A stretch of 64,000 nucleotides of DNA from a virus, in the IMG/VR virus record IMGVR_UViG_3300045988_150343. One strand, written 5' to 3'. Within the stretch, counting starts at the first letter, position 1. The number at the start of each line of letters is the position of its first letter. Positions 1,602 through 56,776 of this stretch are shown here, piece by piece. The translations under genes and the position numbers were made by a program. The notes under the pieces were generated by a model, which saw nothing but the letters and a program-made list of their open reading frames with translations, made no database searches and had not been told where the DNA came from.

Positions 1602-2078
1602 TTATATAAAATTAAGCTCCGTATCACGGTCTCTTTTCAGAATCACCATAAATACTAAAGCCTGGTCTTTTGCCTGAGCTACCTGAGTATCTCCAGAGGG
1701 TTTATAGACTATGCCATTAATAACAAACCGATCCATTGACCAATTGAAATCCCAGTAACCGTTCTTGTTAAGGTAACCAATCTTGCGAACATACTCGGTG
1801 CTAATTAAGATGGAGAGGGTCTCTTCATCAAGTTCACCTGCAATTGTAGCTTTATCAATTGGCCAGTTACGGAAAGCGTTATAGTAGCAAAGAGCTTCAA
1901 TCTCTATCGGATAATACTTGGGTATATAATCTTCACCATGAGTCAAGAGTTGGTCTACATTCTTTGCCCATATTATGGTTTGTCGACCTGCATCTTGGTC
2001 TATAAAGGTGGTGATAACTTTCTTGTACTTATCCCAGGACTTGTTTGGTACAAGAGAAGCAGGTTCTTTGGTTGACAT
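1602..2078 (-). CDS. Hypothetical virion protein
   Basis: Tightly packed minus-strand ORF in the morphogenesis block. No motif recognised. Confidence 0.5.
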   Translation of the reverse strand: MSTKEPASLVPNKSWDKYKKVITTFIDQDAGRQTIIWAKNVDQLLTHGEDYIPKYYPIEIEALCYYNAFRNWPIDKATIAGELDEETLSILISTEYVRKIGYLNKNGYWDFNWSMDRFVINGIVYKPSGDTQVAQAKDQALVFMVILKRDRDTELNFI

Positions 2079-2083
2079 AAGAA

Positions 2084-2965
2084 TTATTGGGGGATATTGC
2101 TTTCTCCACCATTAATGGGGTAAGTTGGGTTGGGTCCACCTAATAAACCTGGGTCTCTATGGTTAACAACTTTAGGAATAACCACGGTTCTATGATGTTG
2201 ACAGAACGGTAAGAATATGTTCAAACGTTCAGCTAACGTACACAGGTTCTTTTTAATTGAATCAATTAGACCACCAGGTTGAAGAGCTTTATAATAAGTA
2301 GAGTACAAGCTAGAGATGGATTCAGAAAACGTATCATAATACTGTACCTCTGTAGGGCCAGTAGTGATAGACTTGATTCGGTCTCCTCTAGAATTTCCGA
2401 CGGCATCATCATCCTCTTCGGTGATACCCGTTACATTGGATAAATATTGCCCTACTCTTGCAAGCAGATTATAAAGCTTAGTATTAAGGAAGTCCCATAC
2501 AGCCAATTCCATTATCAGCTGGTTCTCTAGTCCTTCATAGTATAATTCATTATTATATTCTTCCTTAGGAATAAAATGATCTACTAGAGGATGGATATAC
2601 AATTGCCATTTATTTATGTACAGCTGTTTCTCTTGTAGAGTCATCGAAGTTACAATCTCCTTAGGTAAGTAGTAATCAATGAGATCATAGATACTTCCGG
2701 TTAGAGAAGTCTCAGCATCAAGGTTAACTACGATGGTTTGAGAGTATGAGTATGTTTGGCTATTTTTACTATCCGTATAAGAAACGGTTACATCATAAAA
2801 GCCAGATTCATTATAGGTATGAGTAACTTGTCTTCTGTTATATTCCTCTGTAGAATCACCAAAGTCCCAATCTACGGGCATTGTAGATGGGACTTTACCG
2901 GTGAATCTGAATTTTACTGTAAGACCAGAGATAATCGGCACAAAGCCAAATTCTACTGGTGCCAT
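2084..2965 (-). CDS. PKD/Ig-like domain-containing virion protein
   Basis: The N-terminal ~70 aa (VKFRFTGKVPSTMPVDWDFGDSTEEYNRRQVTHTYNESGFYDVTVSYTD) fit the PKD signature (FDFGDG...HtY..G.Y.VtL). The rest is unassigned. Confidence 0.6.
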   Translation of the reverse strand: MAPVEFGFVPIISGLTVKFRFTGKVPSTMPVDWDFGDSTEEYNRRQVTHTYNESGFYDVTVSYTDSKNSQTYSYSQTIVVNLDAETSLTGSIYDLIDYYLPKEIVTSMTLQEKQLYINKWQLYIHPLVDHFIPKEEYNNELYYEGLENQLIMELAVWDFLNTKLYNLLARVGQYLSNVTGITEEDDDAVGNSRGDRIKSITTGPTEVQYYDTFSESISSLYSTYYKALQPGGLIDSIKKNLCTLAERLNIFLPFCQHHRTVVIPKVVNHRDPGLLGGPNPTYPINGGESNIPQ

Positions 2966-2991
2966 ATTTGAAAGTTTTTGAAAAAGGTTTT

Positions 2992-3387
2992 TTACTTGCC
3001 AGATTCCTCAAAATCGTCGAACATAGACTTGATGAGGACTTCAGCGGTGTCATTTGGGTCAACTTCAAATCCGGCTTCTTTTGCCATAAGCTGAACCTCT
3101 TCGAGAGAATAAGCTTTAACTACCTTAGAAACCTCCATGCCCTTGGCATGCTGTGCTTTGAGCTTGTTGAGTAATTTTTTGATGGCTTCTTCGGAGTATT
3201 TAGCAGCTTCGGATGGCTCCTGTACCAAAGATAGGTGGCCCTGGTTCAGGGCAGTACGAACTCGATGGGTATTGAACTGGCGGAGTGTAAGTTCTTTAAC
3301 TTCTCCTCTTGAAATAGAAAGACCGGTAGACTGATCATTAAATGAATAAGCCTTTGGTCCTAGTTGAACTTTAAATGTTTTTGCCAT
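2992..3387 (-). CDS. Hypothetical protein downstream of the capsid gene
   Basis: Minus-strand ORF between the capsid terminator hairpin and the PKD gene. No motif recognised. Confidence 0.5.
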   Translation of the reverse strand: MAKTFKVQLGPKAYSFNDQSTGLSISRGEVKELTLRQFNTHRVRTALNQGHLSLVQEPSEAAKYSEEAIKKLLNKLKAQHAKGMEVSKVVKAYSLEEVQLMAKEAGFEVDPNDTAEVLIKSMFDDFEESGK

Positions 3388-3481
3388 ATCTGTTGTTTTA
3401 TAATTATGGGTTTAAGTTAAAATAGAGGAAGTACCCCTTTATGGGCAAGTACTTCCTCTTGGCAGAAAGAAAATCAGCGGC

Positions 3482-4588
3482 TTATCCCAGATTAACCTGG
3501 AGATATGGGTCAACCGTCATAAATTCAGGGAAACCGTTGCTGCTGAACTCCTTGTTAGAAGCAAGCAGAAGTGAAGCATCCTGGTACATTTTGCTGAAGC
3601 CAGTAGTAAGACTTGCATATACAGCCTCGGTCTGGTTCGAAACGATTCGTTCAGACTCGAGCATCAACTGGCGAGCAGTAAGCTTGATGAGAGCGGCAGA
3701 ACGATCAACGAGCAAAAGTTGATTTTCAGGAGTGCCCGGATGGATGTAAAAGTTAGCTTTATTTGGGATAGGAGACTTAACATCGAGAGTTGCGGCAGTA
3801 GTACCCGATGCACGATCCTTGAACTCAGGGAGATTGAGCATCTCGATTGCCTGGTCTTCGCCACCGATCATATCTGTGAAGTTGCGGCCCATACGAGATC
3901 CACGTACCCAGATATGGAGAAGGTCTTTATAAGTGATGCCTTTTGTGGTGTTATATACACCGATTACCGGAGCAGACTCTGAACCATCTATCATGTTACC
4001 ATTCAGGAGAACATCCATAGCCAGAGTATCCATCGCATAACCGAGCTGAACGCCAAAGTCGCGAAGATAGATGCTGAGTACATCCAATGAAACGAAATTC
4101 TTTACTTCATCTGTAAGCTTGAAGCCTTTACCGATTTTGAAAAGAGATACCTGTTTCTGACCGAAGCTTACGGTACCGAGTGGGAAAGTCTCGGCTTCGT
4201 TAACCTTCGACGGAGTAGCATCCGACATGTTGATGATAGGCATAGTTGCTCGGAGACCATTGATAGGCTGGTCCGAAGCGATAATCTGAGGGTAGAACGG
4301 TGCCTGACGCATTCCAGTGGTGATTGCCTCTCGGATGATTTCCGGAACAATCCAGCGAATCTGCTGATCTGGCATAGTGAACAGATTTTCCATCGTAGTA
4401 ACGTGGGTATTGATACCCAGTTTCTCGAAGAAATCTGCCTGAGAAAGGTTGTATCGGTCGGTTACTACTTCTCCAAGTGTAACATCCACCGGGAGACGAT
4501 TGTCTGATCCTTTACGGAGAGCATCCATTTCGAGGACGGTCTCTCTCAGTGAACTAAGAAGTTCCTGTTTAGTTTTTTCCGTTGTCAT
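3482..4588 (-). CDS. Major capsid protein (HK97-fold type, inferred)
   Basis: A 368-aa ORF in the canonical order TerL-portal-protease/scaffold-decoration-capsid. It is followed immediately by a strong hairpin (3424..3459), as is typical for a highly expressed capsid gene. The assignment rests on size and synteny rather than a specific motif. Confidence 0.7.
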   Translation of the reverse strand: MTTEKTKQELLSSLRETVLEMDALRKGSDNRLPVDVTLGEVVTDRYNLSQADFFEKLGINTHVTTMENLFTMPDQQIRWIVPEIIREAITTGMRQAPFYPQIIASDQPINGLRATMPIINMSDATPSKVNEAETFPLGTVSFGQKQVSLFKIGKGFKLTDEVKNFVSLDVLSIYLRDFGVQLGYAMDTLAMDVLLNGNMIDGSESAPVIGVYNTTKGITYKDLLHIWVRGSRMGRNFTDMIGGEDQAIEMLNLPEFKDRASGTTAATLDVKSPIPNKANFYIHPGTPENQLLLVDRSAALIKLTARQLMLESERIVSNQTEAVYASLTTGFSKMYQDASLLLASNKEFSSNGFPEFMTVDPYLQVNLG

Positions 4589-8089: not shown

Positions 8090-9576
8090 TTGGGGAGTAT
8101 TATAATTTGTTCTTTACCTTTTCGTATATGGTTTGTTATAGCCTTTCCAAAAATATCATCATCGGCATAAACTTCAGCATCTGGGTCATCGGCATTGGTG
8201 TTGGCCTTATGTTTACCCATTGCTACTGGTCTATTTAAGCCATCATAGATGAAGGTATAAGCTTCGTTAACAAAGAAGGGGTCTTTAATTATGACATTTC
8301 CCTCTCTTATATCCTTTTCTAGAGCTTCAATTATAACAGGTCTATTCTTATTGGTAGTTAACCATCCAGGAGCTTTGTCGACTTCTGGGCGACTCTTACC
8401 CTTCTGTTTTATAAGTTTTTGATAATAATATAAGTTTGGATAGCCTTCAGCCTGTAACATAGAGGTTACGGCCAATCCCACATCATTAGATTCGGGGGCT
8501 AATAAGGCATAATTGAATAATTCTCCAGTATCACCTAAGAGCCTAGCATATTTATCCACTGAAATACGGCCCTTATACACAACTTGTTCTTCCCCATACC
8601 TGTCCATGACAGTGAAGGAAGAGTAGTCATTAGAACGACCAGTTGCAACGTCAGCACCAATATAATATTGTTTATCTGGTTCTGGCTCTAGAAATTGCCT
8701 ATACTGACCATTGAATCGAGTTTTAATGACCGGATAATCTGATAGACAGTCCTCAATAGCCTTAATATCTGCAAGGTCGAATACGGTGTTACCCGAAGAA
8801 AGGAAGTCACCATCTATCTCTTGGGCAGTCCTTCTTGGGCCAAGAGCTTTAGACATGGTGTGATACCAATTTTCGTCTCGTTCAGGGTGCATCTCCCAGT
8901 AGAGACGAATAGGATTGAAACCATTACCTCCAGAAATAGAGTCAACCCATTGGGAATGGTAGAAATTACCAATTCCTTTGGGTGTGGAATTAATGATAGC
9001 AGAGCCACCAGTAGATAGAGTAGGAAGAGCAGCTGCCCAAACCTCACTAGCCCATCTTACCATAGCAGCCTCATCAATCACCAAAAGAGAAAGAGACTCA
9101 GAACGACCCGCTTCTGGAGAAGTAGGGACTGACTCAATGAATGAGCCATTGGAGAACTCCATTAAGGAAGTTGAACCAAGTTCAGAAACCCTACCGTTTA
9201 TAATGGGAGTTTGTAGATACCAAGGAAGATTCTTGTACATGAACTTAATCTTCTTTAGTACCTTTTTAGCAGTAGTGTCCTTGATGGAGATGATGTTTAC
9301 CTTCTTATTGGGATGGTACATACATAGCCATAGGCAGTACATAGATATTAACTCAGTGATACCAGCCTGTCGGAACTTCAATACGATGTTGAAACGTTCC
9401 TTAACAAACTGGTATAAAACTGCCTTTTGAAAAGGGTATAGTGCGAATTGGACTTTACCTCTGGTGGGATGAATCACATAACAGAATGTACTAAATAAGA
9501 ATACATCGTTTGTGACTTTAGCTAATGTTTGTAACTCTTCCCGTGAAATAAAGGTGGGTTGAGTTGTTATTGCCAT
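8086..9576 (-). CDS. terL: Terminase large subunit
   Basis: Walker A-like LKFRQAGITELIS (compare T4 gp17 SRQLGKT), Walker B LLVIDEAAMV, and a C-terminal RNaseH-like nuclease region YIGADVATGRSNDYSSFTVM. Confidence 0.9.
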   Translation of the reverse strand: MAITTQPTFISREELQTLAKVTNDVFLFSTFCYVIHPTRGKVQFALYPFQKAVLYQFVKERFNIVLKFRQAGITELISMYCLWLCMYHPNKKVNIISIKDTTAKKVLKKIKFMYKNLPWYLQTPIINGRVSELGSTSLMEFSNGSFIESVPTSPEAGRSESLSLLVIDEAAMVRWASEVWAAALPTLSTGGSAIINSTPKGIGNFYHSQWVDSISGGNGFNPIRLYWEMHPERDENWYHTMSKALGPRRTAQEIDGDFLSSGNTVFDLADIKAIEDCLSDYPVIKTRFNGQYRQFLEPEPDKQYYIGADVATGRSNDYSSFTVMDRYGEEQVVYKGRISVDKYARLLGDTGELFNYALLAPESNDVGLAVTSMLQAEGYPNLYYYQKLIKQKGKSRPEVDKAPGWLTTNKNRPVIIEALEKDIREGNVIIKDPFFVNEAYTFIYDGLNRPVAMGKHKANTNADDPDAEVYADDDIFGKAITNHIRKGKEQIIILPK

Positions 9577-12128: not shown

Positions 12129-12188
12129 ATCTATATCATTTTAGAGGTTAGATATGTATTAGCTACTAGAGTATTGCACCCATCCCAT

Positions 12189-12236
12189 ACCAGCTCTACT
12201 AAAATTTGGATATATAAAACAAAATGCGTATATTTG
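12189..12236 (+). promoter_or_regulatory. Bacteroidota-type promoter with upstream ACCAGCTCT element (drives the plus-strand operon 12270-14296)
   Basis: ACCAGCTCT at 12189-12197, TTTG at 12205-12208, a 20-nt spacer, and TAtaTTTG at 12229-12236. A 31-nt stretch (ACCAGCTCTACTAAAATTTGGATATAT plus 4 flanking nt) is identical to 56687-56717. Confidence 0.7.
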
Positions 12237-12269
12237 CAGTGTAAATAATTAAAACAATAAAATAAAATT

Positions 12270-12686
12270 ATGCCAAAACGAAAAATCAAAACCAAAGTTA
12301 AAAAGCTCAAGGTTATCAACGTAACACCCACCTATTCAGTGGGCCAAGAGTTAATTTACTCAGATGAGAAATCCATAATGGAGAAAACTTCTATTGCCCA
12401 AGTTAAAGAGACGGGGTACCTCCTCTCTAATGGTATAATGGTCAACTTTGACCTTATCCGAATAGATTATTGGGCATACCCAGGACATTGCATTCTGGCT
12501 GATAAAGAAGGCTTAGAGAAGTATCAGGCATACTCTGCTCAGCAAAAAGCCTTAAAAAGCCTGGCTAAACTTGAGAAAATATTATCTAAAATGGACAAGA
12601 TGAACCTCACTCTAGAGGATGCCCAGGTAATCAATCTAGCAAATGAATTACTTAACAAAATAAACACAGCAATTAACAATGATTAA
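12270..12686 (+). CDS. Hypothetical protein (first gene of the plus-strand accessory operon)
   Basis: Plus-strand ORF 34 nt after the promoter -7 box. No motif recognised. Confidence 0.55.
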   Translation: MPKRKIKTKVKKLKVINVTPTYSVGQELIYSDEKSIMEKTSIAQVKETGYLLSNGIMVNFDLIRIDYWAYPGHCILADKEGLEKYQAYSAQQKALKSLAKLEKILSKMDKMNLTLEDAQVINLANELLNKINTAINND

Positions 12687-12870
12687 AACTCTAGCGGTAA
12701 TTTATGCTATTACCTTAATCCCCACAGTAATAGCCCTCTTGGCTTGGCCAGAGGCTAATAAAGAAGTACTTGAAGGCCGATTAGGTAAATTGGGATTTTT
12801 CCTTTCAGCCTGGATGGCATCACCCGTCATTCTCCTTTATATGCTAATCACTAAAATCCTAAGACGATGA
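12679..12870 (+). CDS. Small two-TM membrane protein
   Basis: A 63-aa ORF with two hydrophobic segments (LAVIYAITLIPTVIALLAW and LGFFLSAWMASPVILLYMLI). Its start and stop overlap the neighbouring genes. Confidence 0.5.
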   Translation: MIKTLAVIYAITLIPTVIALLAWPEANKEVLEGRLGKLGFFLSAWMASPVILLYMLITKILRR

Positions 12871-13292
12871 AACCTTTCACCGACTTGGTTCACGACGCAA
12901 TGTTCCCCTCAACTCGCATCTATCGGGATGCTGAGGGGAATTACGCCGGGAGCTCTACCGATATTACCCCAATAATACTTCTGATGGCCAGGTGTTGGGG
13001 ATTGGCCATCTTCCTATTTTATATCCTGACTCCTCTCTTGGCACCTGTATATTATGGGTTTGCCCATTGGTTCTGTCATAAGTATGATGCCTACTTCATG
13101 AAAGAAGACCCTAAAGGATGGCCAATGGATAAAGCCAGAATCCTTAAGGATTTCAGGAACATATTCTGGGGATGGATTATATTTATGGGAGTGGGATTAG
13201 CCACTAACTTTGGGGCTAATAGAACCTATGCCCCCTATTATACTCAACCCTCCGTATCTTCTGCTCAATATGTAAGAGAACACGGAAAGTAA
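12867..13292 (+). CDS. Multi-pass membrane protein
   Basis: Hydrophobic segments IILLMARCWGLAIFLFYILTPLLAPVYYGF and IFWGWIIFMGVGLATNF. ATGA overlap with the upstream gene. Confidence 0.5.
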   Translation: MKPFTDLVHDAMFPSTRIYRDAEGNYAGSSTDITPIILLMARCWGLAIFLFYILTPLLAPVYYGFAHWFCHKYDAYFMKEDPKGWPMDKARILKDFRNIFWGWIIFMGVGLATNFGANRTYAPYYTQPSVSSAQYVREHGK

Positions 13293-13325
13293 ATTGATTT
13301 TAGTAACTTATTTATCATTTAGATT

Positions 13326-13937
13326 ATGGACAAACAACCAAAGCCGATTATCGGCACACACAATTCAATGACATTCCTACGACCTGCAAAGTGGTACGGA
13401 TGGTTTATGATACCTTTCGCTCGTTGTCAAAATAAGGATATAGAGCAACAATGGGAAGCAGGGGCAAGAGTTTTTGATTTGAGGGTTAAGTTTGATAGGT
13501 ATGGACATTCATATTTCGCCCATGGCCTATACGACTGCTCATCTCGCTTCACACTGAATGACGCATTGACTTTAATCGAGCGCCTCCACCTTTACCACAT
13601 CCACTTTTACCACAAAGAAGAGGTATATGTACGTTTGATTCTTGAAGATACAAAGAATGAGAATTACCAAGCAGAGTATTTCCGCAAAGCCTGCAAACGT
13701 ATTGAAAAAGAGTTTGAGCACATTCACTTCTTCGGTGGCAATCGCAAGGGCAATTGGACGAAGCTCTACGTCTTCAAGGAAGATGTCCCCGATTCGCTCA
13801 ACAACCAATGGGTATCATCAATGGCGGATGATGCTCGATGGTATGAGAAGTTCCTACCGTTTACTTATGCACTGAGATGCAATAAGCGCAACAAAGCGAA
13901 GGTGAAACCAAAGTTTAATTTATTTGATTTTATATAA
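13326..13937 (+). CDS. PI-PLC X-domain-like phosphodiesterase
   Basis: IIGTHNSMTF ... QQWEAGARVFDLRV ... YFAHGLY ... VYVRLILED parallels Bacillus PI-PLC IPGTHDSGTF ... QMDHGARIFDIRG ... VLHHGPLY ... IIMSLKKE, including both catalytic His positions and the Arg-Asp pair (alignment from memory). Confidence 0.6.
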   Translation: MDKQPKPIIGTHNSMTFLRPAKWYGWFMIPFARCQNKDIEQQWEAGARVFDLRVKFDRYGHSYFAHGLYDCSSRFTLNDALTLIERLHLYHIHFYHKEEVYVRLILEDTKNENYQAEYFRKACKRIEKEFEHIHFFGGNRKGNWTKLYVFKEDVPDSLNNQWVSSMADDARWYEKFLPFTYALRCNKRNKAKVKPKFNLFDFI

Positions 13938-13942
13938 TAGGT

Positions 13943-14296
13943 ATGGGTTATCCGGATAGATTAATGGCCTGGGTTAGGGCAGGCGATATTGGCTTTGAGT
14001 TAAGGTTTAAAAAGACTCCCAATTTATTTGAGGAGGGGTGTTATACCCTATATTATATTAGTACGGTTATGTTGCCTAAATCCCTGATGATGGTTATACC
14101 CTATGCTGTATACCGTGAGGGTTCTATTATCATCTCTCAAGATGATAAACAGAGTCATGTACTCAAGATGGGTTATGAGATAGAGGTAAAGGAAGTATTA
14201 GATAAGGTCGATGGTAAGGTTAAGTATTATGGGAAGATCCCTAATGGGGATTCCTGGATATTGCCTCTTAAGGCTATACCTGCTAATATAAGGTAA
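13943..14296 (+). CDS. Hypothetical protein (last gene of the plus-strand operon)
   Basis: Plus-strand ORF followed by the hairpin 14322..14347. No motif recognised. Confidence 0.5.
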   Translation: MGYPDRLMAWVRAGDIGFELRFKKTPNLFEEGCYTLYYISTVMLPKSLMMVIPYAVYREGSIIISQDDKQSHVLKMGYEIEVKEVLDKVDGKVKYYGKIPNGDSWILPLKAIPANIR

Positions 14297-15170: not shown

Positions 15171-15248
15171 AATTAAAACATTTTTAAAAATTAATAATAA
15201 AATGATAAATACTTATGTGATTTCGGGAACTCTTTCCCTTTCACACCA

Positions 15249-15279
15249 CAAAGATACATCAAACTTTTTACATACCAAA
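15249..15279 (-). promoter_or_regulatory. Bacteroidota-type promoter for 14736..15170
   Basis: On the minus strand: TTTG (15279-15276), a 19-nt spacer, and TAtcTTTG (15256-15249). Confidence 0.55.
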
Positions 15280-15670
15280 TATTTTTGAGAATTTTTTTTT
15301 ATGTTATAAAACATATTTTTTTTAGATTAAATTTTTGCGGAAATATTTGGAAAATTAAAATATTTTATTATAGAAAAATTTTTTAAGATTTTTATGTTAA
15401 ATTTTAAAAATTTTTAAAATTCCCCAATTTGGGCAGGTATGAAGTTCCGGGGTAGGCTTGATAGCTATAATAGATTACGGGTATGATGGGTATAAGGCTG
15501 GTAGGTATGATGCAATGGGGTAAGTGCCTAAGGGGCCAAAATTCCGGTAAAAATTGGGCAAAAGCTTCCGGTAAGTTTCGGCAATAGTTAGGCCGATTTC
15601 CGGCAGTAGCTAGTGGGGAATAAGTAATTACTCGTATAGTAACTAGGGTAGGTAAGTAAGATATGCTACA

Positions 15671-15696
15671 GGGTTAGCGAAACTGGGTTAGCGATA
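15671..15696. repeat. Tandem GGGTTAGCGA x2; ACTGGGTTAGCGATA is repeated exactly at 17702-17716
   Basis: GGGTTAGCGA at 15671-15680 and 15685-15694. The 15-mer ACTGGGTTAGCGATA at 15682-15696 recurs at 17702-17716 in the second ORF-free spacer. Confidence 0.8.
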
Positions 15697-15732
15697 GCCC
15701 CTTTAGGCCTGTATGGGGTATGCCACAGAGAA

Positions 15733-15758
15733 AAGCCCAGACGGTTAGGCCTGGGCTT
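15733..15758 (-). terminator. Hairpin after 15778..16074
   Basis: AAGCCCAG (15733-15740) pairs with CTGGGCTT (15751-15758), 20 nt downstream of the minus-strand stop. Confidence 0.55.
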
Positions 15759-15777
15759 GATAGGTAGGGTATGTATT

Positions 15778-17166: not shown

Positions 17167-17210
17167 ATTCTTTTGAATTAAATTAATATTGATTTGAAAT
17201 TTTCATATTG

Positions 17211-17242
17211 CAAATATAATGCTTTTATTTAATTTGACCAAA
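17211..17242 (-). promoter_or_regulatory. Bacteroidota-type early promoter
   Basis: On the minus strand: TTTG (17242-17239), a 20-nt spacer, TAtaTTTG (17218-17211), followed by caATATGAAAA. Confidence 0.65.
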
Positions 17243-17293
17243 TAATATTTCAATCAATTCGGGCTAGTCTGTGGTTAATAGGGTATGCCTCCT

Positions 17294-17333
17294 AGTAATT
17301 TAGTTGGGTTTTATGCTAAGTAATTTAGTTGGG
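17294..17333. repeat. Direct repeat AGTAATTTAGTTGGG x2
   Basis: Exact 15-mers at 17294-17308 and 17319-17333 in the ORF-free spacer. Confidence 0.85.
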
Positions 17334-17996
17334 CGTTATTGGTGATATTCTAGGATATTGGGGTAGGTAAGCCCCTTTTGGGCCTGAATAAAGAGGTAGG
17401 ATTTAAGGCCTTAAGCCTTTGGAATAGGGTTGGGATTTAGGGCCTGAAGTTGCCCATAAAATTGCCCTAATCCTCGGCCCCATCTGACCGATAATTATAT
17501 TACTTGTATAATACTAATAGAGGGGCTTTAGGGGCCTTAAAGTCCTTGGGATACCTAACTTATTGATATGGCCCATATTAGGTACCTGAAGACAATAGAG
17601 CCTAAATATTGACAGGAGAGCTGGTAAGTATGATATTGGAGAGTTATAGGGGTACGTATGACAGTTTGAGAATATCCTGAAATAGCCTAAGTAGCTAAGT
17701 TACTGGGTTAGCGATATTGGGAGTTGGCCTAATTCGTAACGTAGCCGTATTTTCTAACGCCTATATAAAAGTACTTATTTGGGGGTTCGGATTGGGGCTT
17801 TGGGGTACCATTTTTGGGTAGGGTTTGGGTACCTAAAATGATGGGCCTTATGGACTATTAGGATGTGTGGAGAGAGCTGTGTGGCTTTATAGACGTGTGG
17901 GGGAGTGGGGTGTGGCCTTATAGTGCCCCCGCCTTAAGGGCCTACTGAAATCCGGCCAGAGTTTAAACCCCCGGGGATATATGTATGGAGTTGTAT

Positions 17997-18050
17997 CATT
18001 GAATAAGACTGACATTGAATAAGGACATTGAATAAGACTGAGTTAAGACT
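17997..18050. repeat. Iteron-like triple repeat CATTGAATAAG(A/G)
   Basis: CATTGAATAAGACT at 17997-18010, CATTGAATAAGGA at 18013-18025, CATTGAATAAGACT at 18026-18039, and an extra TAAGACT at 18044-18050. Confidence 0.85.
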
Positions 18051-18264
18051 GTAAGGCTTAATTGAGTTATATTTGAGATAGTAAGGATTGGTGGGTATGT
18101 ATCATGGAGGGTTATATTAAAGGTATCGGATAGGTTGATATGTTTTTCTTTTTTCTTTGTTTGGGGGGGAGGAGTGAATGGGTAAACATGAAATTAGGTA
18201 CCTTAGTCCTTCTCGGATTTGGGTACCTAGAATTAGTAGGTATTAGATTTAAGGTTGGGATTCT

Positions 18265-19717: not shown

Positions 19718-19766
19718 CAAATATACACATTTATTTTAATATATCCAAATTTGCATCGAGCTGGTA
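19718..19766 (-). promoter_or_regulatory. Early promoter cassette (ACCAGCTC + TTTG + TAtaTTTG)
   Basis: On the minus strand: ACCAGCTC (19765-19758), TTTG (19749-19746), a 20-nt spacer, TAtaTTTG (19725-19718). Confidence 0.7.
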
Positions 19767-20380: not shown

Positions 20381-20427
20381 CAAAGATACAATATAATTTT
20401 TAATTACACAAATTTTGCTAGAGCTGG
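20381..20427 (-). promoter_or_regulatory. Early promoter cassette
   Basis: On the minus strand: CCAGCTCT (20427-20420), TTTG (20412-20409), a 20-nt spacer, TAtcTTTG (20388-20381). Confidence 0.7.
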
Positions 20428-21976: not shown

Positions 21977-22025
21977 CAAATTTACAATAATAAATTTATA
22001 TATCCAAATTATATCTGAGCTGGTA
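21977..22025 (-). promoter_or_regulatory. Early promoter cassette
   Basis: On the minus strand: TACCAGCTC (22025-22017), TTTG (22008-22005), a 20-nt spacer, TAaaTTTG (21984-21977), followed by taATATGAAAA. Confidence 0.7.
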
Positions 22026-26493: not shown

Positions 26494-26542
26494 CAAATTT
26501 AATTATTTATTTTATAATATGCAAATTTAATCAGAGCTGGTA
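26494..26542 (-). promoter_or_regulatory. Early promoter cassette
   Basis: On the minus strand: TACCAGCTCT (26542-26533), TTTG (26525-26522), a 20-nt spacer, TAaaTTTG (26501-26494). Confidence 0.7.
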
Positions 26543-29299: not shown

Positions 29300-29339
29300 A
29301 GCTAACCCAACCTTTCGGAAGGATATAGTTGGGTTAGCT
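29300..29339 (-). terminator. Hairpin after 29362..30021
   Basis: AGCTAACCCAAC (29300-29311) pairs perfectly with GTTGGGTTAGCT (29328-29339). Confidence 0.65.
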
Positions 29340-29361: not shown

Positions 29362-30021
29362 TTACTTCTTTCCCTTTTTACCTTTATTGGCTTTAGGAAG
29401 AGAAATCCCCATTTCCTTGGCTATTGCCTTGCGGAGCTTCTCTACATCGTCTTCGTCAAAGTCATCTGGGTCAGTTTCGAGTTCATGATCATCGCATACA
29501 TCCTCGAGTTCCTCGAAGTCCATATCGGCGAGATCCTCTCCGGTAAGTTCTTCGTCGGAGTCGTCGTCTTCTTCTTCCTCCTCGTCTTCGTCGGAGTCGT
29601 CGTCGTCTTCTTCCTCCTCCTCGTCTTCGTCGGAGTCTTCATCATCTTCTTCCTCCTCGTCTTCGTCTTCTTCGTCTTCGTCTTCGTCGTCTTCTTCGTC
29701 TTCGTCTTCGTCGGAGTCTTCGTCGTCTTCTTCGTCTTCGTCGGAGTCGTCGTCTTCCTCCTCGTCGGAGTCGTCGTCTTCCTCCTCGTCGTCTTCGTCC
29801 TCGTCGTCTTCGTCCTCGTCGTCCTCGTCGTCTTCGTCCTCGTCGTCGTCGGAGTCTTCGTCGGAACCGAAGAAAGAAGATACCTGTTCTGCAGTAAGTT
29901 TAATAGGATTAGGTATAAACTGAAGAGTACCATCTTCGAATTTGATGATAACTCCGCCCTCAACTTCCAGGCGTTCTACTTCAGCAACTGCTGCCTTCTT
30001 TTCTGTTTTTTTCTTTGCCAT
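29362..30021 (-). CDS. Polyacidic protein (~115-residue Asp/Glu/Ser tract)
   Basis: A basic/beta N-terminus (MAKKKTEKKAAVAEVERLEVEGGVIIKFEDGTLQF...), then SDEDSDDDEDEDDEDDEDEDD...DDDSDEE, then an acidic-helical end and a basic tail (KANKGKKGKK). The gene is bracketed by its own terminator. The other-frame and antisense ORFs here are repeat shadows. Confidence 0.7.
   Translation of the reverse strand: MAKKKTEKKAAVAEVERLEVEGGVIIKFEDGTLQFIPNPIKLTAEQVSSFFGSDEDSDDDEDEDDEDDEDEDDEDEDDEEEDDDSDEEEDDDSDEDEEDDEDSDEDEDEEDDEDEDEEDEDEEEEDDEDSDEDEEEEEDDDDSDEDEEEEEDDDSDEELTGEDLADMDFEELEDVCDDHELETDPDDFDEDDVEKLRKAIAKEMGISLPKANKGKKGKK
29545..29870. repeat. Low-complexity GAN-codon (gtc/ttc/ctc on the plus strand) tract
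   Basis: About 325 nt of degenerate trinucleotide repeats encoding the D/E/S tract. Open in several frames. Confidence 0.9.
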
Positions 30022-32334: not shown

Positions 32335-32392
32335 CAAATTTAGATATAATTTTTGAATTGACAAAATTATTTTTCACAATTCAAGAGCTGGT
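32335..32392 (-). promoter_or_regulatory. Early promoter cassette (overlaps the 3' end of 32367..33353)
   Basis: On the minus strand: ACCAGCTCT (32392-32384), TTTG (32365-32362), a 19-nt spacer, TAaaTTTG (32342-32335). Confidence 0.65.
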
Positions 32393-33353
32393 CTGGAGCT
32401 CGTTCTACACCAGTAGAGGGAGTTTTCTTCTTTTTAGGTTTAGGCCTATGCTCCATATAGGCATTATCAAGAGACTTTACACTGAAGTCAATATTGTTCA
32501 CCTCATTGTAGTTAACAGCCCTCTTAATAATATCAATGAAAGTAGGCCAAAAACCTTGACCTAATCGGACATTTGCTGTTTTAGCCCTATATTTAGTGAC
32601 CATAAAACCAAAATCCTCGGCATCTTGTTTTGTTGAAAATACATAGAGATAGAATCTACTCATTTCGTCTATGATTTCTCTTTCTTGACGAATCGGTAAT
32701 AGTGAAAAACCCTTTTCTGGGTATAACAATTCAGATACCAGACATACCCAATATTTGGGTTTTGAGGGTTTTACCTTATAGTAAAATCTTTCTCGGATTT
32801 TCTCTATGAACCAAGGTTTGTTTCTGTCAAGGGTATACTTAATGTATATCTTGTACTTCTTATTTACTCTACGTTTGAAAGCTGAGGGTTGTTGTATCAG
32901 TCTTGGGAGGATACGATAATTATTCCATCGGTCAAACTCCATAATTAAATTCCAAGTGTCCTTATCCCAGGAGTCTCCAGACTCTTTAAGTCTTTTCATA
33001 TTCCGGATGAGGTTCTCTTGGGTCACAGAATTTACTAAAAGAGAGGATTCTCCTACAAAGGCAGATGCTTCAGACCGTTTCATCCTCTTCTCAAGGCAAG
33101 CATACATAAAATCCCGGAAGGTTTCTTCTACTGCTCCATTAGGCCTAAATAGGTCTGAATGAGTTTCATAGAACTCGGTGAACATTTTGAAGAACTTCTG
33201 GGATCTGTCTTTAATCTCTAAGTATTTATAATGAGATATACCCATCATCTCTCCGGCTTCCCAAGAGGATTTCCCTTGGGAAAGTTGAAGGAACAGAGAG
33301 TTCTGTTCCTTCTGAGTTAAGCAATTCCACGCTTTTTCTTGAGCTTCTGTCAT
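32367..33353 (-). CDS. Putative transcription regulator with an N-terminal sigma-70 region-4/LuxR-like HTH
   Basis: LTQKEQNSLFLQLSQGKSSWEAGEMMGISHYKYLEIKDRSQKFF resembles the region-4 pattern L...e..v..l....g.s..EIae.lgiS..tV......a...l. The remaining ~270 aa are unassigned. Confidence 0.45.
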   Translation of the reverse strand: MTEAQEKAWNCLTQKEQNSLFLQLSQGKSSWEAGEMMGISHYKYLEIKDRSQKFFKMFTEFYETHSDLFRPNGAVEETFRDFMYACLEKRMKRSEASAFVGESSLLVNSVTQENLIRNMKRLKESGDSWDKDTWNLIMEFDRWNNYRILPRLIQQPSAFKRRVNKKYKIYIKYTLDRNKPWFIEKIRERFYYKVKPSKPKYWVCLVSELLYPEKGFSLLPIRQEREIIDEMSRFYLYVFSTKQDAEDFGFMVTKYRAKTANVRLGQGFWPTFIDIIKRAVNYNEVNNIDFSVKSLDNAYMEHRPKPKKKKTPSTGVERAPDQLLNCEK

Positions 33354-34054
33354 AATCGTCTGGTATTATAGGATTCTTCTACTGACTCTGATGTAACTCG
33401 ATTGGGGTCAACCTCTAAAGGGTTGACAAATAAAGCTTCTGGGTCAAAGTTATGATAGACACTGTAGAGCACATTATCTAAGGGCAAGGTTACTTCCATT
33501 GTACCCATTAAAGGGTATAAGGTAAGAGTTACTATCCTGTCCCTCTTATTTATTTTCTTAATGATGGCATCTACTCCCTCATAGGGGTAAGTATTCAGGG
33601 TTACGTAGTCTCCCACTTTAAGTTTAGCAATATCTTCAAGAGAATATTTCCGATTAGCTCTAGCAATCTTCCTAAATCTCCTGACTTCCGACTTTGGACA
33701 AGTTGCTACTATTGAAAAATCGTCAAAATCCTCGGCATTGTCTATCCTTCTCTTCTTCTTTCGGGGAAACATAGTTTGGGTAGATTTAAGGAAAGTCCTT
33801 ATACCTGATATATTTCTCCTGAGTTTAACTAAGAAATTCCTGGAATAGGCTAACTCAACGGGCATTCTCATAAAGCCATAGTTAAACAGTACTGGTACCT
33901 CCTCATAGTAGGTTTTTCCCTTAATGGCTTTTTTGAGTATTCTAACTTCCGGAACTATAGCCCTGATTTTATTATAACCCTTAGCCTTAAGTTCTTCGTT
34001 TATTTTATGATAGAACTTTCTCTCTATGTAAAAGATACAGTATACGTATTTCAT
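33350..34054 (-). CDS. NusG-like transcription elongation/antitermination factor (NGN + KOW)
   Basis: NGN-like VYCIFYIERKFYHKINEELKAKGYNKIRAIVPEVRILKKAIKGKTYYEEVPVLFNYGFMRM (compare NusG WYVV...E..V...L......VMVPTEEV....G.....E...FPGYVLVQM). KOW-like LKVGDYVTLNTYPYEGVDAIIKKINKRDRIVTLTLYPLMGTMEVTLPLDNV (compare [51 protein letters not shown]). Confidence 0.65.
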   Translation of the reverse strand: MKYVYCIFYIERKFYHKINEELKAKGYNKIRAIVPEVRILKKAIKGKTYYEEVPVLFNYGFMRMPVELAYSRNFLVKLRRNISGIRTFLKSTQTMFPRKKKRRIDNAEDFDDFSIVATCPKSEVRRFRKIARANRKYSLEDIAKLKVGDYVTLNTYPYEGVDAIIKKINKRDRIVTLTLYPLMGTMEVTLPLDNVLYSVYHNFDPEALFVNPLEVDPNRVTSESVEESYNTRRL

Positions 34055-36297: not shown

Positions 36298-37295
36298 GAC
36301 TCTGTCTTGATTAGAATATCAGTTAATAACTTCTGTTTGTTCTTATCTTTTATGCCTTTAGCCTTCATATATTTTCTAGCTAGCGCTTTCTTAGATAACC
36401 GCTTAGTAATTTTATGGGTGGTTACTTCCTCTTTTCTGGGTTTAGGAGGTATTACAGTATAATAATTACCATCGTCTTTGATTTCCTCCTCGGATTCTAC
36501 ATCTATAAACTTAGGAAAGCCTTTTAATTCTTTAAAAGCCATGGTAAGGTTTCCGGAGGGTTCAGAATATAGTTCCCAATACCCAAGCTTACAGTGCATA
36601 TCGGTTCTACGCTGTTGGATTGGACACCCAACCATATAAACCTTTTTAGATAGTTTCTGGGGTTTATGAATATGGCCGCAGAGAATTAAGTCAAACTTGT
36701 TCAGGAGATTGGGGTTGATAGCATTAGTGGCCTCTACTTCTCTACCATCAGTATCCTTAGCACCGGGGTATGTAGTATGAAGCATAAGTATGTGTTTATA
36801 CTTACTACCTTTACCTATATGATGATTGTCAATCAACTGAGTTAGGTATTCATTTATACCCGCATTGTCATCAATGTATGGTATCCCATGAACTTTTATG
36901 AGAGTAAGGTCTCCCAGTTTTTCTGATTTGAAATTCAAATCCTTCATCCACCTCTTTCTAAGTAAAGTAGCCAAGCTCTTTTGGGGTTTATCTACGGTAT
37001 TCCGGTGTTTTAGAGAATGGTTACCGTCTATATACCACATCTCCCACCTATAGGGTTCAGAATTAGGATTTCCTGGCTCGAACTCTTGCCACATCTCCAA
37101 TAGGTCTGTATCTATGGACTCTGACTTATGGAATAAGTCTCCACAAAATAATGCCGGAACTTTTGGGTACTTATTTGCCAAAAAAGAAAGGACCCGAAAA
37201 GATTCTCGGGTCCTTTTCATATTTTGGTTAAACTTTGTCCAAAGGTTGAGATGTAAGTCCGAGAATACTATAGCTAGTAGTTCTCTTTTTTTCAT
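36291..37295 (-). CDS. sbcD: SbcD/Mre11-like metallophosphoesterase nuclease (T4 gp47 analogue)
   Basis: Calcineurin-like motifs FSDLHL, GDLFH, GNHS and GHIH, in the canonical order. Confidence 0.8.
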   Translation of the reverse strand: MKKRELLAIVFSDLHLNLWTKFNQNMKRTRESFRVLSFLANKYPKVPALFCGDLFHKSESIDTDLLEMWQEFEPGNPNSEPYRWEMWYIDGNHSLKHRNTVDKPQKSLATLLRKRWMKDLNFKSEKLGDLTLIKVHGIPYIDDNAGINEYLTQLIDNHHIGKGSKYKHILMLHTTYPGAKDTDGREVEATNAINPNLLNKFDLILCGHIHKPQKLSKKVYMVGCPIQQRRTDMHCKLGYWELYSEPSGNLTMAFKELKGFPKFIDVESEEEIKDDGNYYTVIPPKPRKEEVTTHKITKRLSKKALARKYMKAKGIKDKNKQKLLTDILIKTESC

Positions 37296-40977: not shown

Positions 40978-40997
40978 AGTGTATTTATATACAAGAA

Positions 40998-41046
40998 AGG
41001 GAGATACCAAGGTTAGTAGCCTTTGAATATCTCCCTCGGGGTTTCA
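40998..41046 (-). terminator. Hairpin after the SSB-like gene
   Basis: AGGGAGATA (40998-41006) pairs with TATCTCCCT (41038-41046). The loop is long (31 nt). Confidence 0.4.
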
Positions 41047-46203: not shown

Positions 46204-46216
46204 ATAATAACATAGT

Positions 46217-46254
46217 AAGAGGAGACACCCAAAGAGTATTGGATATCTCCTCTT
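46217..46254 (-). terminator. Hairpin between the ThyA-like gene and polA
   Basis: AAGAGGAGA (46217-46225) pairs with TCTCCTCTT (46246-46254). Confidence 0.45.
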
Positions 46255-46277
46255 ATATTCATACTGAGTATGGGGGT

Positions 46278-56600: not shown

Positions 56601-56688
56601 CTTGTTCTGGGTTTAAATTTATATAGTTATAGTGGACTTGTTCTCATGTGTATAGTAGCTCAATCTAGAGGGTGTATCATACTCCTCT

Positions 56689-56736
56689 ACCAGCTCTACT
56701 AAAATTTGGATATATTAAAATAATGTCTTAAATTTG
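56689..56736 (+). promoter_or_regulatory. Bacteroidota-type promoter with ACCAGCTCT element (drives 56777..57433)
   Basis: ACCAGCTCT at 56689-56697, TTTG at 56705-56708, a 20-nt spacer, and TAaaTTTG at 56729-56736. Near-identical to the promoter at 12189..12236. Confidence 0.7.
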
Positions 56737-56776
56737 CATTGTAAAAAATTTAATAAATTTTAATTCAATATTACTA

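Follow-up and report, generated by a model that had tools for sequence, protein, structure and literature searches.

A phage-borne NusG paralogue and its conserved neighbour at the end of a long replication unit: fold, gene context and a possible role in antitermination

The specialised NusG paralogues RfaH, LoaP, UpxY and TaA are the known means by which bacteria express very long, hard-to-transcribe operons. A 64,000-nt stretch of the virus record IMGVR_UViG_3300045988_150343 (hereafter the window, to which all coordinates refer) raises the question of whether a phage could bring along a factor of this kind for its own operons. The minus strand of the window encodes a 234-aa NusG-like protein (33350..34054, with the stop codon at 33350-33352), directly followed by a 328-aa protein (p328; 32367..33353). 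The two open reading frames (ORFs) share an ATGA stop/start overlap of 4 nt at 33350..33353, exactly as described in the original prediction, which had been made from the letters of the sequence. That prediction had further proposed that the first protein combines the NGN and KOW domains of a specialised NusG paralogue, that the second begins with an HTH (helix-turn-helix) domain of the sigma region 4 or LuxR type, and that the former could serve as a processive antiterminator operating by UpxY-like logic. Here the 234-aa protein is found to be a phage-restricted and highly divergent NusG paralogue with NGN and KOW domains, encoded by the penultimate gene of a replication unit of ~24 kb that has no recognisable host-type promoter. 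Its action as an antitermination or processivity factor on long phage operons is given a probability of about 0.5.

A phage-restricted NusG paralogue with NGN and KOW domains

The assignment of the 234-aa protein is based on the ORF call, on structure comparison with Foldseek, on a family profile and on separate scans of the family members with hidden Markov models (HMMs). The AlphaFold2 (AF2) model has a mean predicted local distance difference test score (pLDDT) of 71, rising to ~87-93 at residues 1-30 and 61-90. When this model was compared with the PDB by Foldseek, all 28 matches at E<=1e-3 were NusG, Spt5 or RfaH, the best of them at 9.6e-10. The NGN part was superposed on the NGN domain of RfaH (8pen_P) with a target-normalised template modelling (TM) score of 0.74 and a root-mean-square deviation (rmsd) of 2.9 A, with additional matches to 5ond and 2oug, and the KOW part on the NusG KOW domain 2mi6 with a TM score of 0.74 and an rmsd of 1.4 A. 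Sequence profiles pointed to the same superfamily. Among PDB entries, a profile from 28 homologues picked out KOW domains of NusG and Spt5 (8.9e-4 at best), and a profile from 45 divergent, aligned members (22-44% identity) matched NusG, Spt5 or RfaH chains in 25 of its 26 PDB matches at E<=0.1, with Spt5/NusG KOW domains from 2.8e-4 and the NGN domain of RfaH at E 0.027 through region 6-74. Scanned one by one, these 45 members matched the models of UpxY (27 members, best 1e-10), LoaP (13), NusG (10), PF02357 (eight) and RfaH (five). These per-member matches, together with the PDB chains retrieved by the profile, make the homology to the NusG superfamily secure, and on sequence and model evidence the 234-aa protein almost certainly adopts the superfamily fold. 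The reading of NGN and KOW domains in 33350..34054 is thus borne out.

Membership of any named NusG subfamily is not secure for this protein. As a single sequence, it gave E-values of 1.5e-5 for UpxY, 1.8e-5 for LoaP, 3.6e-4 for RfaH and 0.015 for the Spt5 KOW domain, all of them weak, and the bit scores of 25 for UpxY, 25 for LoaP and 20.5 for RfaH compare with curated cut-offs of 100, 125 and 124, respectively. The UpxY match spans only aa 103-191, and the LoaP match aa 18-190. The protein lies far below all the curated NCBIfam cut-offs, including that of TIGR00922, and has no match to the Pfam NusG or KOW models (PF02357, PF00467). Among viral families, phrog_6386 ('transcription antiterminator') was matched over aa 17-194, that is, over the full length, at E 4.3e-5. 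The statement that the protein aligns almost column by column with E. coli NusG was overstated: the identity is 15% to E. coli NusG and 22% to E. coli RfaH, and hhalign aligned E. coli NusG through the KOW domain only (E 3.7e-4).

The NGN core occupies aa 1-90 (33785..34054, minus strand, like all segments of the protein) and is predicted as beta1-alpha1-beta2-hairpin-beta3-alpha2-beta4, as indicated by the AF2 model (pLDDT lower for aa 31-60), the superposition on RfaH and the profile. Its hallmark, P54-x-L-F-N-Y-G-F61, is common to the 45 members and has the RfaH counterpart PLFPNYLFV. Between NGN beta4 and alpha3 lies a lineage-specific loop of aa 91-120 (RKKKRRIDNAEDFDDFSIVA; 33695..33784; pLDDT 51-58), basic at first and then acidic, in which ~22-30 extra residues (RKKKRRIDNAEDFDDFS) have no counterpart in the alignments with E. 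coli NusG and RfaH. This loop is invariant in the 28 closer relatives and varies in length and sequence in distant members. The KOW domain (aa 145-196; 33467..33622) is supported by the PDB profile, hhalign and 2mi6, and carries the motif G148...L153..Y156-P157-(Y/F)-E-G; no positions are better conserved among the 45 members than those of the NGN hallmark and of the KOW motif GYP(F/Y)EG. AF2 predicts a beta-barrel KOW domain at aa 150-191 (pLDDT 64-80), and an RfaH-type alpha-hairpin was not predicted in this single prediction. The protein ends in a tail of 38 residues (aa 197-234; 33353..33466; pLDDT 43-55) that has no NusG or RfaH counterpart and that carries, directly beyond the KOW domain, the motif (Y/F)-(S/T)-x-Y, of which Y200 is invariant throughout the family.

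The family is restricted to phages, and these phages are uncultured. An exhaustive profile search of 1.84 billion representatives returned 194 clusters at 50% identity, whose lengths range over 62-339 aa; cellular NusG proteins were absent at E<=1e-3. IMG/VR contains at least 400 relatives, most of them on contigs of 84-88 kb. Among ~185,000 species genomes, there were four matches, all on contigs of metagenome-assembled genomes or on a 598-bp fragment, and from unrelated taxa. No family member was present among the cultured phages of INPHARED, in which tblastn with three members found only two unannotated metagenomic records, and the region had no megablast match among 50,697 phage records. 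The proposal of a specialised, phage-borne NusG paralogue is therefore upheld in that the protein is phage-restricted, divergent and composed of both domains. Two JGI records name homologues 'NusG', and no description of this family, or experiment on it, was found in the literature. The homologue P0035 is named 'DNA-directed RNA polymerase subunit alpha' in the nr database and has no alpha-subunit features; the name is probably an annotation artefact arising from a match to an entry for an RNA polymerase (RNAP)-NusG complex. Contigs of this phage that have been assigned to assemblies of Roseburia, Collinsella, Dysosmobacter, Mycoplasma and Streptomyces (P0035, P0106; L091-L094) are mis-binned.

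The neighbour p328 and the ~24-kb replication unit

The genes of the window lie nearly all on the minus strand. The NusG-like gene belongs to a replication block (56.6 to 32.4 kb, minus strand) that encodes DnaB, primase, helicase, dUTPase, thymidylate synthase, PolA, SSB, UvsX, exonuclease, SbcD, SbcC, a PDDEXK nuclease, the NusG-like protein and p328. It is joined to the preceding PDDEXK nuclease gene by a further ATGA stop/start overlap (34051..34054, with a spacing of -19 to +4 nt across loci), and in ~90 loci the p328 gene starts at a spacing of -20 to +4 nt from its stop. The order SbcC-PDDEXK-NusG-like-p328-p193 is kept in 81/81 loci as far as the contigs reach, in three closer relatives from Logan assemblies, and even in lineages in which the identity of the NusG-like protein falls to 26-28%. 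A functional partnership between the NusG-like protein and p328 can be put forward tentatively, with somewhat more doubt than confidence.

p328 has 680 homologues and an AF2 model with a pLDDT of 83, and no Pfam or PHROG family was assigned to this conserved partner gene in the profile scans. Its N-terminus (aa ~1-64, KSSWEAGE...SHYKYLEI; 33162..33353, minus strand) resembles sigma region 4 by Foldseek and stands out in its conservation. The leading local matches are mostly sigma region 4 of SigA, SigD, SigL and others, over a three-helix segment of ~57 N-terminal residues, with probabilities of up to 0.99, target-normalised TM scores of 0.57-0.79 and rmsd values mostly of 1.4-3.1 A; every E-value of these matches is above 1. 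No whole-chain match to a PDB structure was significant. The Pfam model of sigma-70 region 4 matched 0/31 members, a single PHROG sigma match was weak (E 0.053), and sigma region 2 is absent N-terminal to the HTH, which sits at the extreme N-terminus. Residues 70-328, which include the invariant block EFDRWNN...RILP...PSAxKRR, match no known domain, sigma domains included. Most of the HTH segment is retained in homologues of as little as 30% overall identity, and H41-Y42-K43 and E46 never vary. The proposed sigma region 4 or LuxR HTH is thus a reasonable call at the level of the modelled fold, with no support from profiles or significance values, and none of the tests applied identified p328 as a sigma factor. 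The PDB profile matches of p328 were to designed repeat proteins and uS11m, were non-significant and were taken as spurious. Seven of 31 p328 members matched Pfam UPF0203, a small eukaryotic helical family (best 7.6e-5; the window p328 is not among them), and these matches are probably compositional.

The end of the replication unit is marked by a promoter of the host type. A scan for the sigma-70-type promoter consensus showed no enrichment, and this consensus was replaced by that of Bacteroidota, TTTG-N17-23-TAnnTTTG, which occurs 12 times in the window against 2.6 expected, a number that no shuffle reached. Within intergenic gaps, such promoters on the minus strand are found only between ~15 and 32.4 kb, and the gaps of the replication and late blocks are all free of -7 boxes on the coding strand. 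One of the promoters, TTTG-N19-TAAATTTG (32335..32365, minus strand), directly follows the p328 stop, and the -7 box at this junction was seen in 10/10 representative relatives inspected. A promoter directly after p328 and the lack of a -7 box in the replication gaps together mean that the pair closes the replication unit; as far as sequence features go, this is a unit of ~24 kb without a recognisable host-type promoter, in which the NusG-like gene is penultimate and the p328 gene last. Beyond it lies a promoter-rich block of ~18 kb (32.3 to 14.3 kb, minus strand), presumably the early block, which consists of small ORFs without assigned function and is divided into units of 1-6 genes.

This layout bears on the idea that the NusG-like protein switches transcription away from single-gene early cassettes and lets polymerase read through the replication and late operons. 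The gene order does not fit such a switch, because the early block lies downstream of the replication block, and a short, convergent gene cluster on the plus strand (12270-14296) separates it from the late block of endolysin, methyltransferase, TerL, portal, protease and major capsid protein genes (12.1 to 1.6 kb, minus strand). Antitermination itself remains plausible.

The remaining part of the window (64.0 to 57.5 kb, minus strand) contains baseplate and tail-fibre genes. The ORFs of the window that were scanned included no phage RNA polymerase, and no tRNAs were found in the window. The published 'Flandersviridae' have a co-linear genome of ~85 kb with a structural block, a DnaB/DnaG/PolA module and ~20 kb of unknown ORFs, and a Bacteroides/Parabacteroides host (PMC8008677). 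The gene architecture seen here and the contigs of 82-88 kb agree with this published description, on which the comparison is based (PMC8008677). The phage would be a 'Flandersviridae'-like phage of Bacteroidota, with the host phylum inferred from the promoters and the literature (PMC8008677); NusG is not mentioned in the 'Flandersviridae' paper (PMC8008677).

Hairpins, recruitment signals and the possible role

Hairpins with a free energy (dG) of at most -16 kcal/mol in 44-nt windows of the coding strand were taken as strong. The window has 52 clusters of them, of which 13 fall in the intergenic 7.5% (binomial P = 9e-5) and 11 of these 13 lie between co-directional genes. The original prediction had spoken of more than a dozen strong hairpins between co-directional genes; the enrichment in gaps is real, the number falls just short, and most of the hairpins are without U-tracts. 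Two hairpins within the replication operon deserve attention. A terminator-like hairpin in the SbcD coding region (37187..37216, minus strand) has a 13-bp stem and a U6 tract and shares the operon of the NusG-like gene, 3.1 kb upstream of it; it is kept in the related loci L084-L086, where L084 shows a compensatory change from G.C to A.T, and may act as a translation-sensitive attenuator. The conserved hairpin in the gap between the SSB and UvsX genes (40997..41037, minus strand) is kept in position and structure in L084-L086, with a wholly different stem sequence in L084. Judged by these comparisons, both hairpins are clearly under selection. A 17-bp hairpin with a dG of -26.5 lies between the thymidylate-synthase-like and DNA polymerase genes (46216..46255, minus strand). 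In the early block, no host-type promoter was found between the hairpins at 29339, 28784, 27482 and 24611 and the next gene, so that read-through or unrecognised promoters must serve the genes that follow these four hairpins.

Recruitment signals of the known kinds were sought in the leaders and in the window as a whole. The UpxY ops signature YGCGNAGCR occurs once against 0.85 expected, at 710-718 and outside any leader, and its core GCGNAGC four times against 5.3 expected. The RfaH ops (GCGGTAGC) has no exact copy in the window, and its one-mismatch matches number 13 against 14.3 expected. A recruitment site of the UpxY or RfaH style was therefore rejected, both signatures being at chance level and never in a leader, and the suggestion that ops-like or UpxY-target motifs might mark the leaders of this phage found no support. 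A different motif, GCAATACT, occurs a single time in the window, in the leader of the late operon (12170..12177, minus strand), and is found 41-52 nt upstream of the endolysin ATG also in L095-097 (2438-2445) and L100-101 (2425-2432). Being unique and positionally conserved in three lineages, it is a candidate late promoter or leader element, and could be the target of the NusG-like/p328 pair. Two further motifs were considered as middle or late promoters and are retained as leads only: ACTATAACT, with two exact copies, both in gaps, and one-mismatch copies that are not enriched, and AATACTCT, with eight copies against 4.5 expected and no statistical support.

In the reading preferred here, to which the probability of about 0.5 applies, the NusG-like protein is an antitermination or processivity factor for long phage operons; that it is an RNAP-binding elongation factor is rather likely. 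Its NGN domain would dock on the beta-prime clamp helices of the host RNAP and replace host NusG, and elongation complexes on phage DNA would thereby become resistant to pausing and to both hairpin- and Rho-dependent termination. It would act on very long one-directional operons that lack internal host-type promoters and contain conserved hairpins. One target could be the replication operon to which the gene itself belongs (56.6 to 32.4 kb), with positive feedback as in UpxY or lambda N, and the other the late operon with the endolysin, packaging, head and tail genes, which is estimated at ~37 kb if the ~18 kb outside the window are co-linear (the longest contig with an identical protein has 82.4 kb). 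p328 would serve as the specificity or partner subunit, binding a leader element, a promoter element or RNAP itself, and the overlap of the two ORFs would have it made in fixed proportion to the NusG-like protein. The principle would be that of RfaH, LoaP and UpxY, with a different recruitment signal and gene arrangement.

Several points weigh against antitermination. No known recruitment signal is present, the UpxY and RfaH ops being at chance. A strong U-tract accompanies one intergenic hairpin only (28784-28748), and with a single canonical U-tract many of these hairpins may be mRNA-stability or processing elements instead of terminators. p328 could lie next to the NusG-like gene simply because synteny is strong throughout the phage family, and the length given for the late operon depends in part on extrapolation from sequence beyond the window. 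In addition, the NusG-like gene is located among recombination and repair genes, which makes a role outside transcription possible. KOW domains occur in ribosomal proteins too, the uL24 KOW domain is among the weak PDB profile matches, and a gene following SbcCD and a PDDEXK/RusA-like nuclease could encode an NGN/KOW-fold protein of replication, recombination or translation. We regard this as quite improbable: both domains together match NusG, Spt5 or RfaH only, the NGN fold is specific to the superfamily, the best-matching models are specialised antiterminators, and the modelled HTH of the downstream partner is of the transcription type.

The lack of a sequence-specific recruitment element would also suit a host-takeover decoy, which could fill the NusG site on host RNAP globally, or titrate Rho, S10 or NusA through the KOW domain, the acidic loop or the tail. 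Its purpose would be to derail host expression or the Rho-dependent silencing of foreign DNA and not a site-specific action on the phage. Rho-mediated silencing of phage genes is established (PMC7819879), and the invariant basic/acidic loop and the C-terminal tail resemble protein-interaction modules; the acidic loop, however, is not conserved in the wider family, and a targeted function is suggested by the tight coupling, seen in all loci, to a protein with a predicted HTH, which leaves the decoy an unlikely explanation. A mimic of UpxY directed against the host could bind the elongation complexes of capsule operons or titrate UpxZ, and thereby reprogramme capsule expression while infection proceeds. 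UpxY is the best-matching model for 27/45 members, the promoter type and the literature indicate a Bacteroidota host (PMC8008677), and the phage susceptibility of Bacteroides has been described as governed by capsule state. Against this, the score is far under the cut-off (25 against 100 bits), the class-defining sequences of the NGN beta2-beta3 hairpin and alpha-helix (PMC11685472) are not recognisably kept, and there is no evidence for any host target, so that the mimic appears very improbable.

NGN and sigma region 2 share the clamp-helix site on beta-prime, and the late sigma function of T4 is split between gp55 and gp33. By analogy, the NGN domain and the sigma-4-like domain of p328 might jointly initiate at phage late promoters: the NGN domain, on the beta-prime clamp helices where sigma region 2 would bind, would recognise bases of the non-template strand in the manner of RfaH at ops, the HTH of p328, on the beta-flap, would read an upstream element of non-consensus promoters, for instance GCAATACT in the late leader, and after escape the NGN/KOW subunit would remain as a built-in processivity factor. 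The tight coupling of the two genes, a sigma-4-like fold without a sigma-2 domain, the lack of host-type promoters in the late and replication blocks and the positionally conserved motif in the late leader would all agree with such a split factor. The sigma-4 similarity is not statistically significant, however, and NusG-family proteins are not known to take part in initiation; the idea appears very improbable. Were it true, it would give the first NusG-family protein in promoter-specific initiation and a new way for a phage to appropriate host RNAP, with T4 gp55/gp33 as a conceptual parallel.

Antitermination, the preferred reading, would have consequences of its own. An abundant human-gut phage family and distant lineages of similar genome size carry their own NusG substitute, which, if the reading is true, would add a new class to the systems by which phages bring about antitermination or appropriate RNAP. 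The family would also offer a handle on expression timing in an uncultured phage family that has been published as about as widespread as crAss-like phages, and a natural experiment on how the recruitment specificity of the NGN domain changes. A recombinant Bacteroides RNAP system exists (PMC11685472).

Other sequence features and comparison with known systems

Six of the Bacteroidota-type promoters carry the element (TA)CCAGCTC exactly 8 nt upstream of the -33 TTTG, at 12190-12196 and 56690-56696 on the plus strand and at 19758-19764, 20421-20427, 22017-22023 and 26534-26540 on the minus strand. ACCAGCTC occurs eight times against 1.1 expected, and CCAGCTC-N5-12-TTTG six times against 0.23 expected; a repeat finder independently recovered a promoter cassette of ~64 nt that contains the element. 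By its sequence pattern, the element is probably the binding site of some regulator. It is absent from relatives at 58-61% identity, and p328 was considered unlikely to be its reader because the p328 HTH is almost unchanged throughout the family, including where the element is missing. The two plus-strand copies fall in paralogous divergent control regions of 76 nt (12183-12258 and 56683-56758; 80% identical), in each of which a plus-strand host-type promoter lies back-to-back with the start of a long minus-strand operon (late, 12128; replication, 56600), and on the side of the minus strand the similarity extends further (CTCTAG...AGCTA.TA). TTAAACCC is enriched, occurring 13 times where 4.0 are expected, with minus-strand copies at 3408, 9580, 19277, 29284, 46274 and 56609; five of these six lie 4-42 nt upstream of start codons, and the copy at 46274 overlaps the stop codon of the preceding gene. 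It may be a gene-start or translation signal, with codon bias as an alternative.

In the early block, a 219-aa protein (29362-30021, minus strand) consists of nearly nothing but Asp/Glu repeats. The contigs of three close relatives all stop near this ORF, which suggests that assembly breaks at the repeat, and the distant lineage L088 has a similar acidic-repeat ORF in the matching relative position (9008-9481). Two stretches of the same block, 17167-18264 (1.1 kb) and 15171-15777 (0.6 kb), contain no coding-strand ORF of >=50 aa and may encode non-coding RNAs or very small proteins. The latter is highly structured (minimum free energy -116.5), and the Rfam scan of the window matched no RNA family, in these two stretches or elsewhere. 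In the close relative L084, the RecA/UvsX gene (2008-4224) contains an intein with a LAGLIDADG homing endonuclease and encodes 738 aa, compared with 384-395 aa elsewhere.

Specialised NusG paralogues serve long operons (PMC7819879, PMC7593976), as UpxY does in Bacteroides (PMC11685472), where recruitment depends on the opsX leader, a YGCGNAGCR hairpin of the non-template strand preceded by a pause hairpin (PMC11685472). The original prediction had invoked the logic of UpxY (NF033644), the NusG paralogues of Bacteroides capsule operons, but the phage gene does not form a UpxY-type system. UpxY is the best-scoring named model and the closest named subfamily; it likewise combines NGN and KOW domains, the host by its promoters belongs to Bacteroidota, and a conserved partner gene follows directly. 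Unlike UpxY, the NusG-like protein reaches 25 of the 100 bits required, adds a loop and a C-terminal tail, is phage-restricted, and is encoded not by the first but by the penultimate gene of its operon; UpxZ follows UpxY, whereas here the next gene encodes a 328-aa HTH protein without a Pfam match and no UpxZ family appeared in the per-member scans, and no leader has a YGCGNAGCR hairpin. For RfaH, the profile aligns across both domains, PLFPNYLFV corresponds to PVLFNYGFM, and the NGN domain gave structural matches. Paralogues borne on mobile elements have a precedent (PMC7593976). In contrast, the score is 20.5 against 124 bits, there is no ops, the HTTT motif is not kept in the alignment, the host phylum differs, and the C-terminal domain of RfaH is an autoinhibitory alpha-hairpin, able to refold into a KOW barrel, where the single AF2 model has a beta-barrel KOW domain here.

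LoaP (NF033641), known from polyketide operons of Firmicutes, is an antiterminator that lets transcription pass hairpin terminators (PMC7819879), and such an activity is what is proposed for the NusG-like protein. Its model matches weakly over the full length (aa 18-190) and is matched by 13/45 members; unlike LoaP, the protein scores 25 against 125 bits and is associated with no known leader RNA element, the Rfam scan being empty. The antiterminators of phages, namely lambda N and Q, the put RNA of HK022 and gp39 of P23-45, make host RNAP termination-resistant on long phage operons (PMC7819879, PMC3351154) and so resemble the NusG-like protein in the role proposed for it. They differ in having unrelated folds and in acting alongside host NusG or otherwise, whereas this phage would supply a NusG substitute of its own. 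The only viral protein family matched, phrog_6386, is matched over the full length but weakly, and its PHROG annotation is not experimental; the match indicates that annotation had already picked up NusG-like proteins in phages. ActX and RfaH homologues on plasmids appear in reviews of NusG paralogues (PMC7819879), and rfaH-like genes on prophages have been noted in passing (PMC7593976). Taken with its lack of the known ops, the NusG-like family differs from every named subfamily in its scores, its added segments, its position in the operon and its partner gene.

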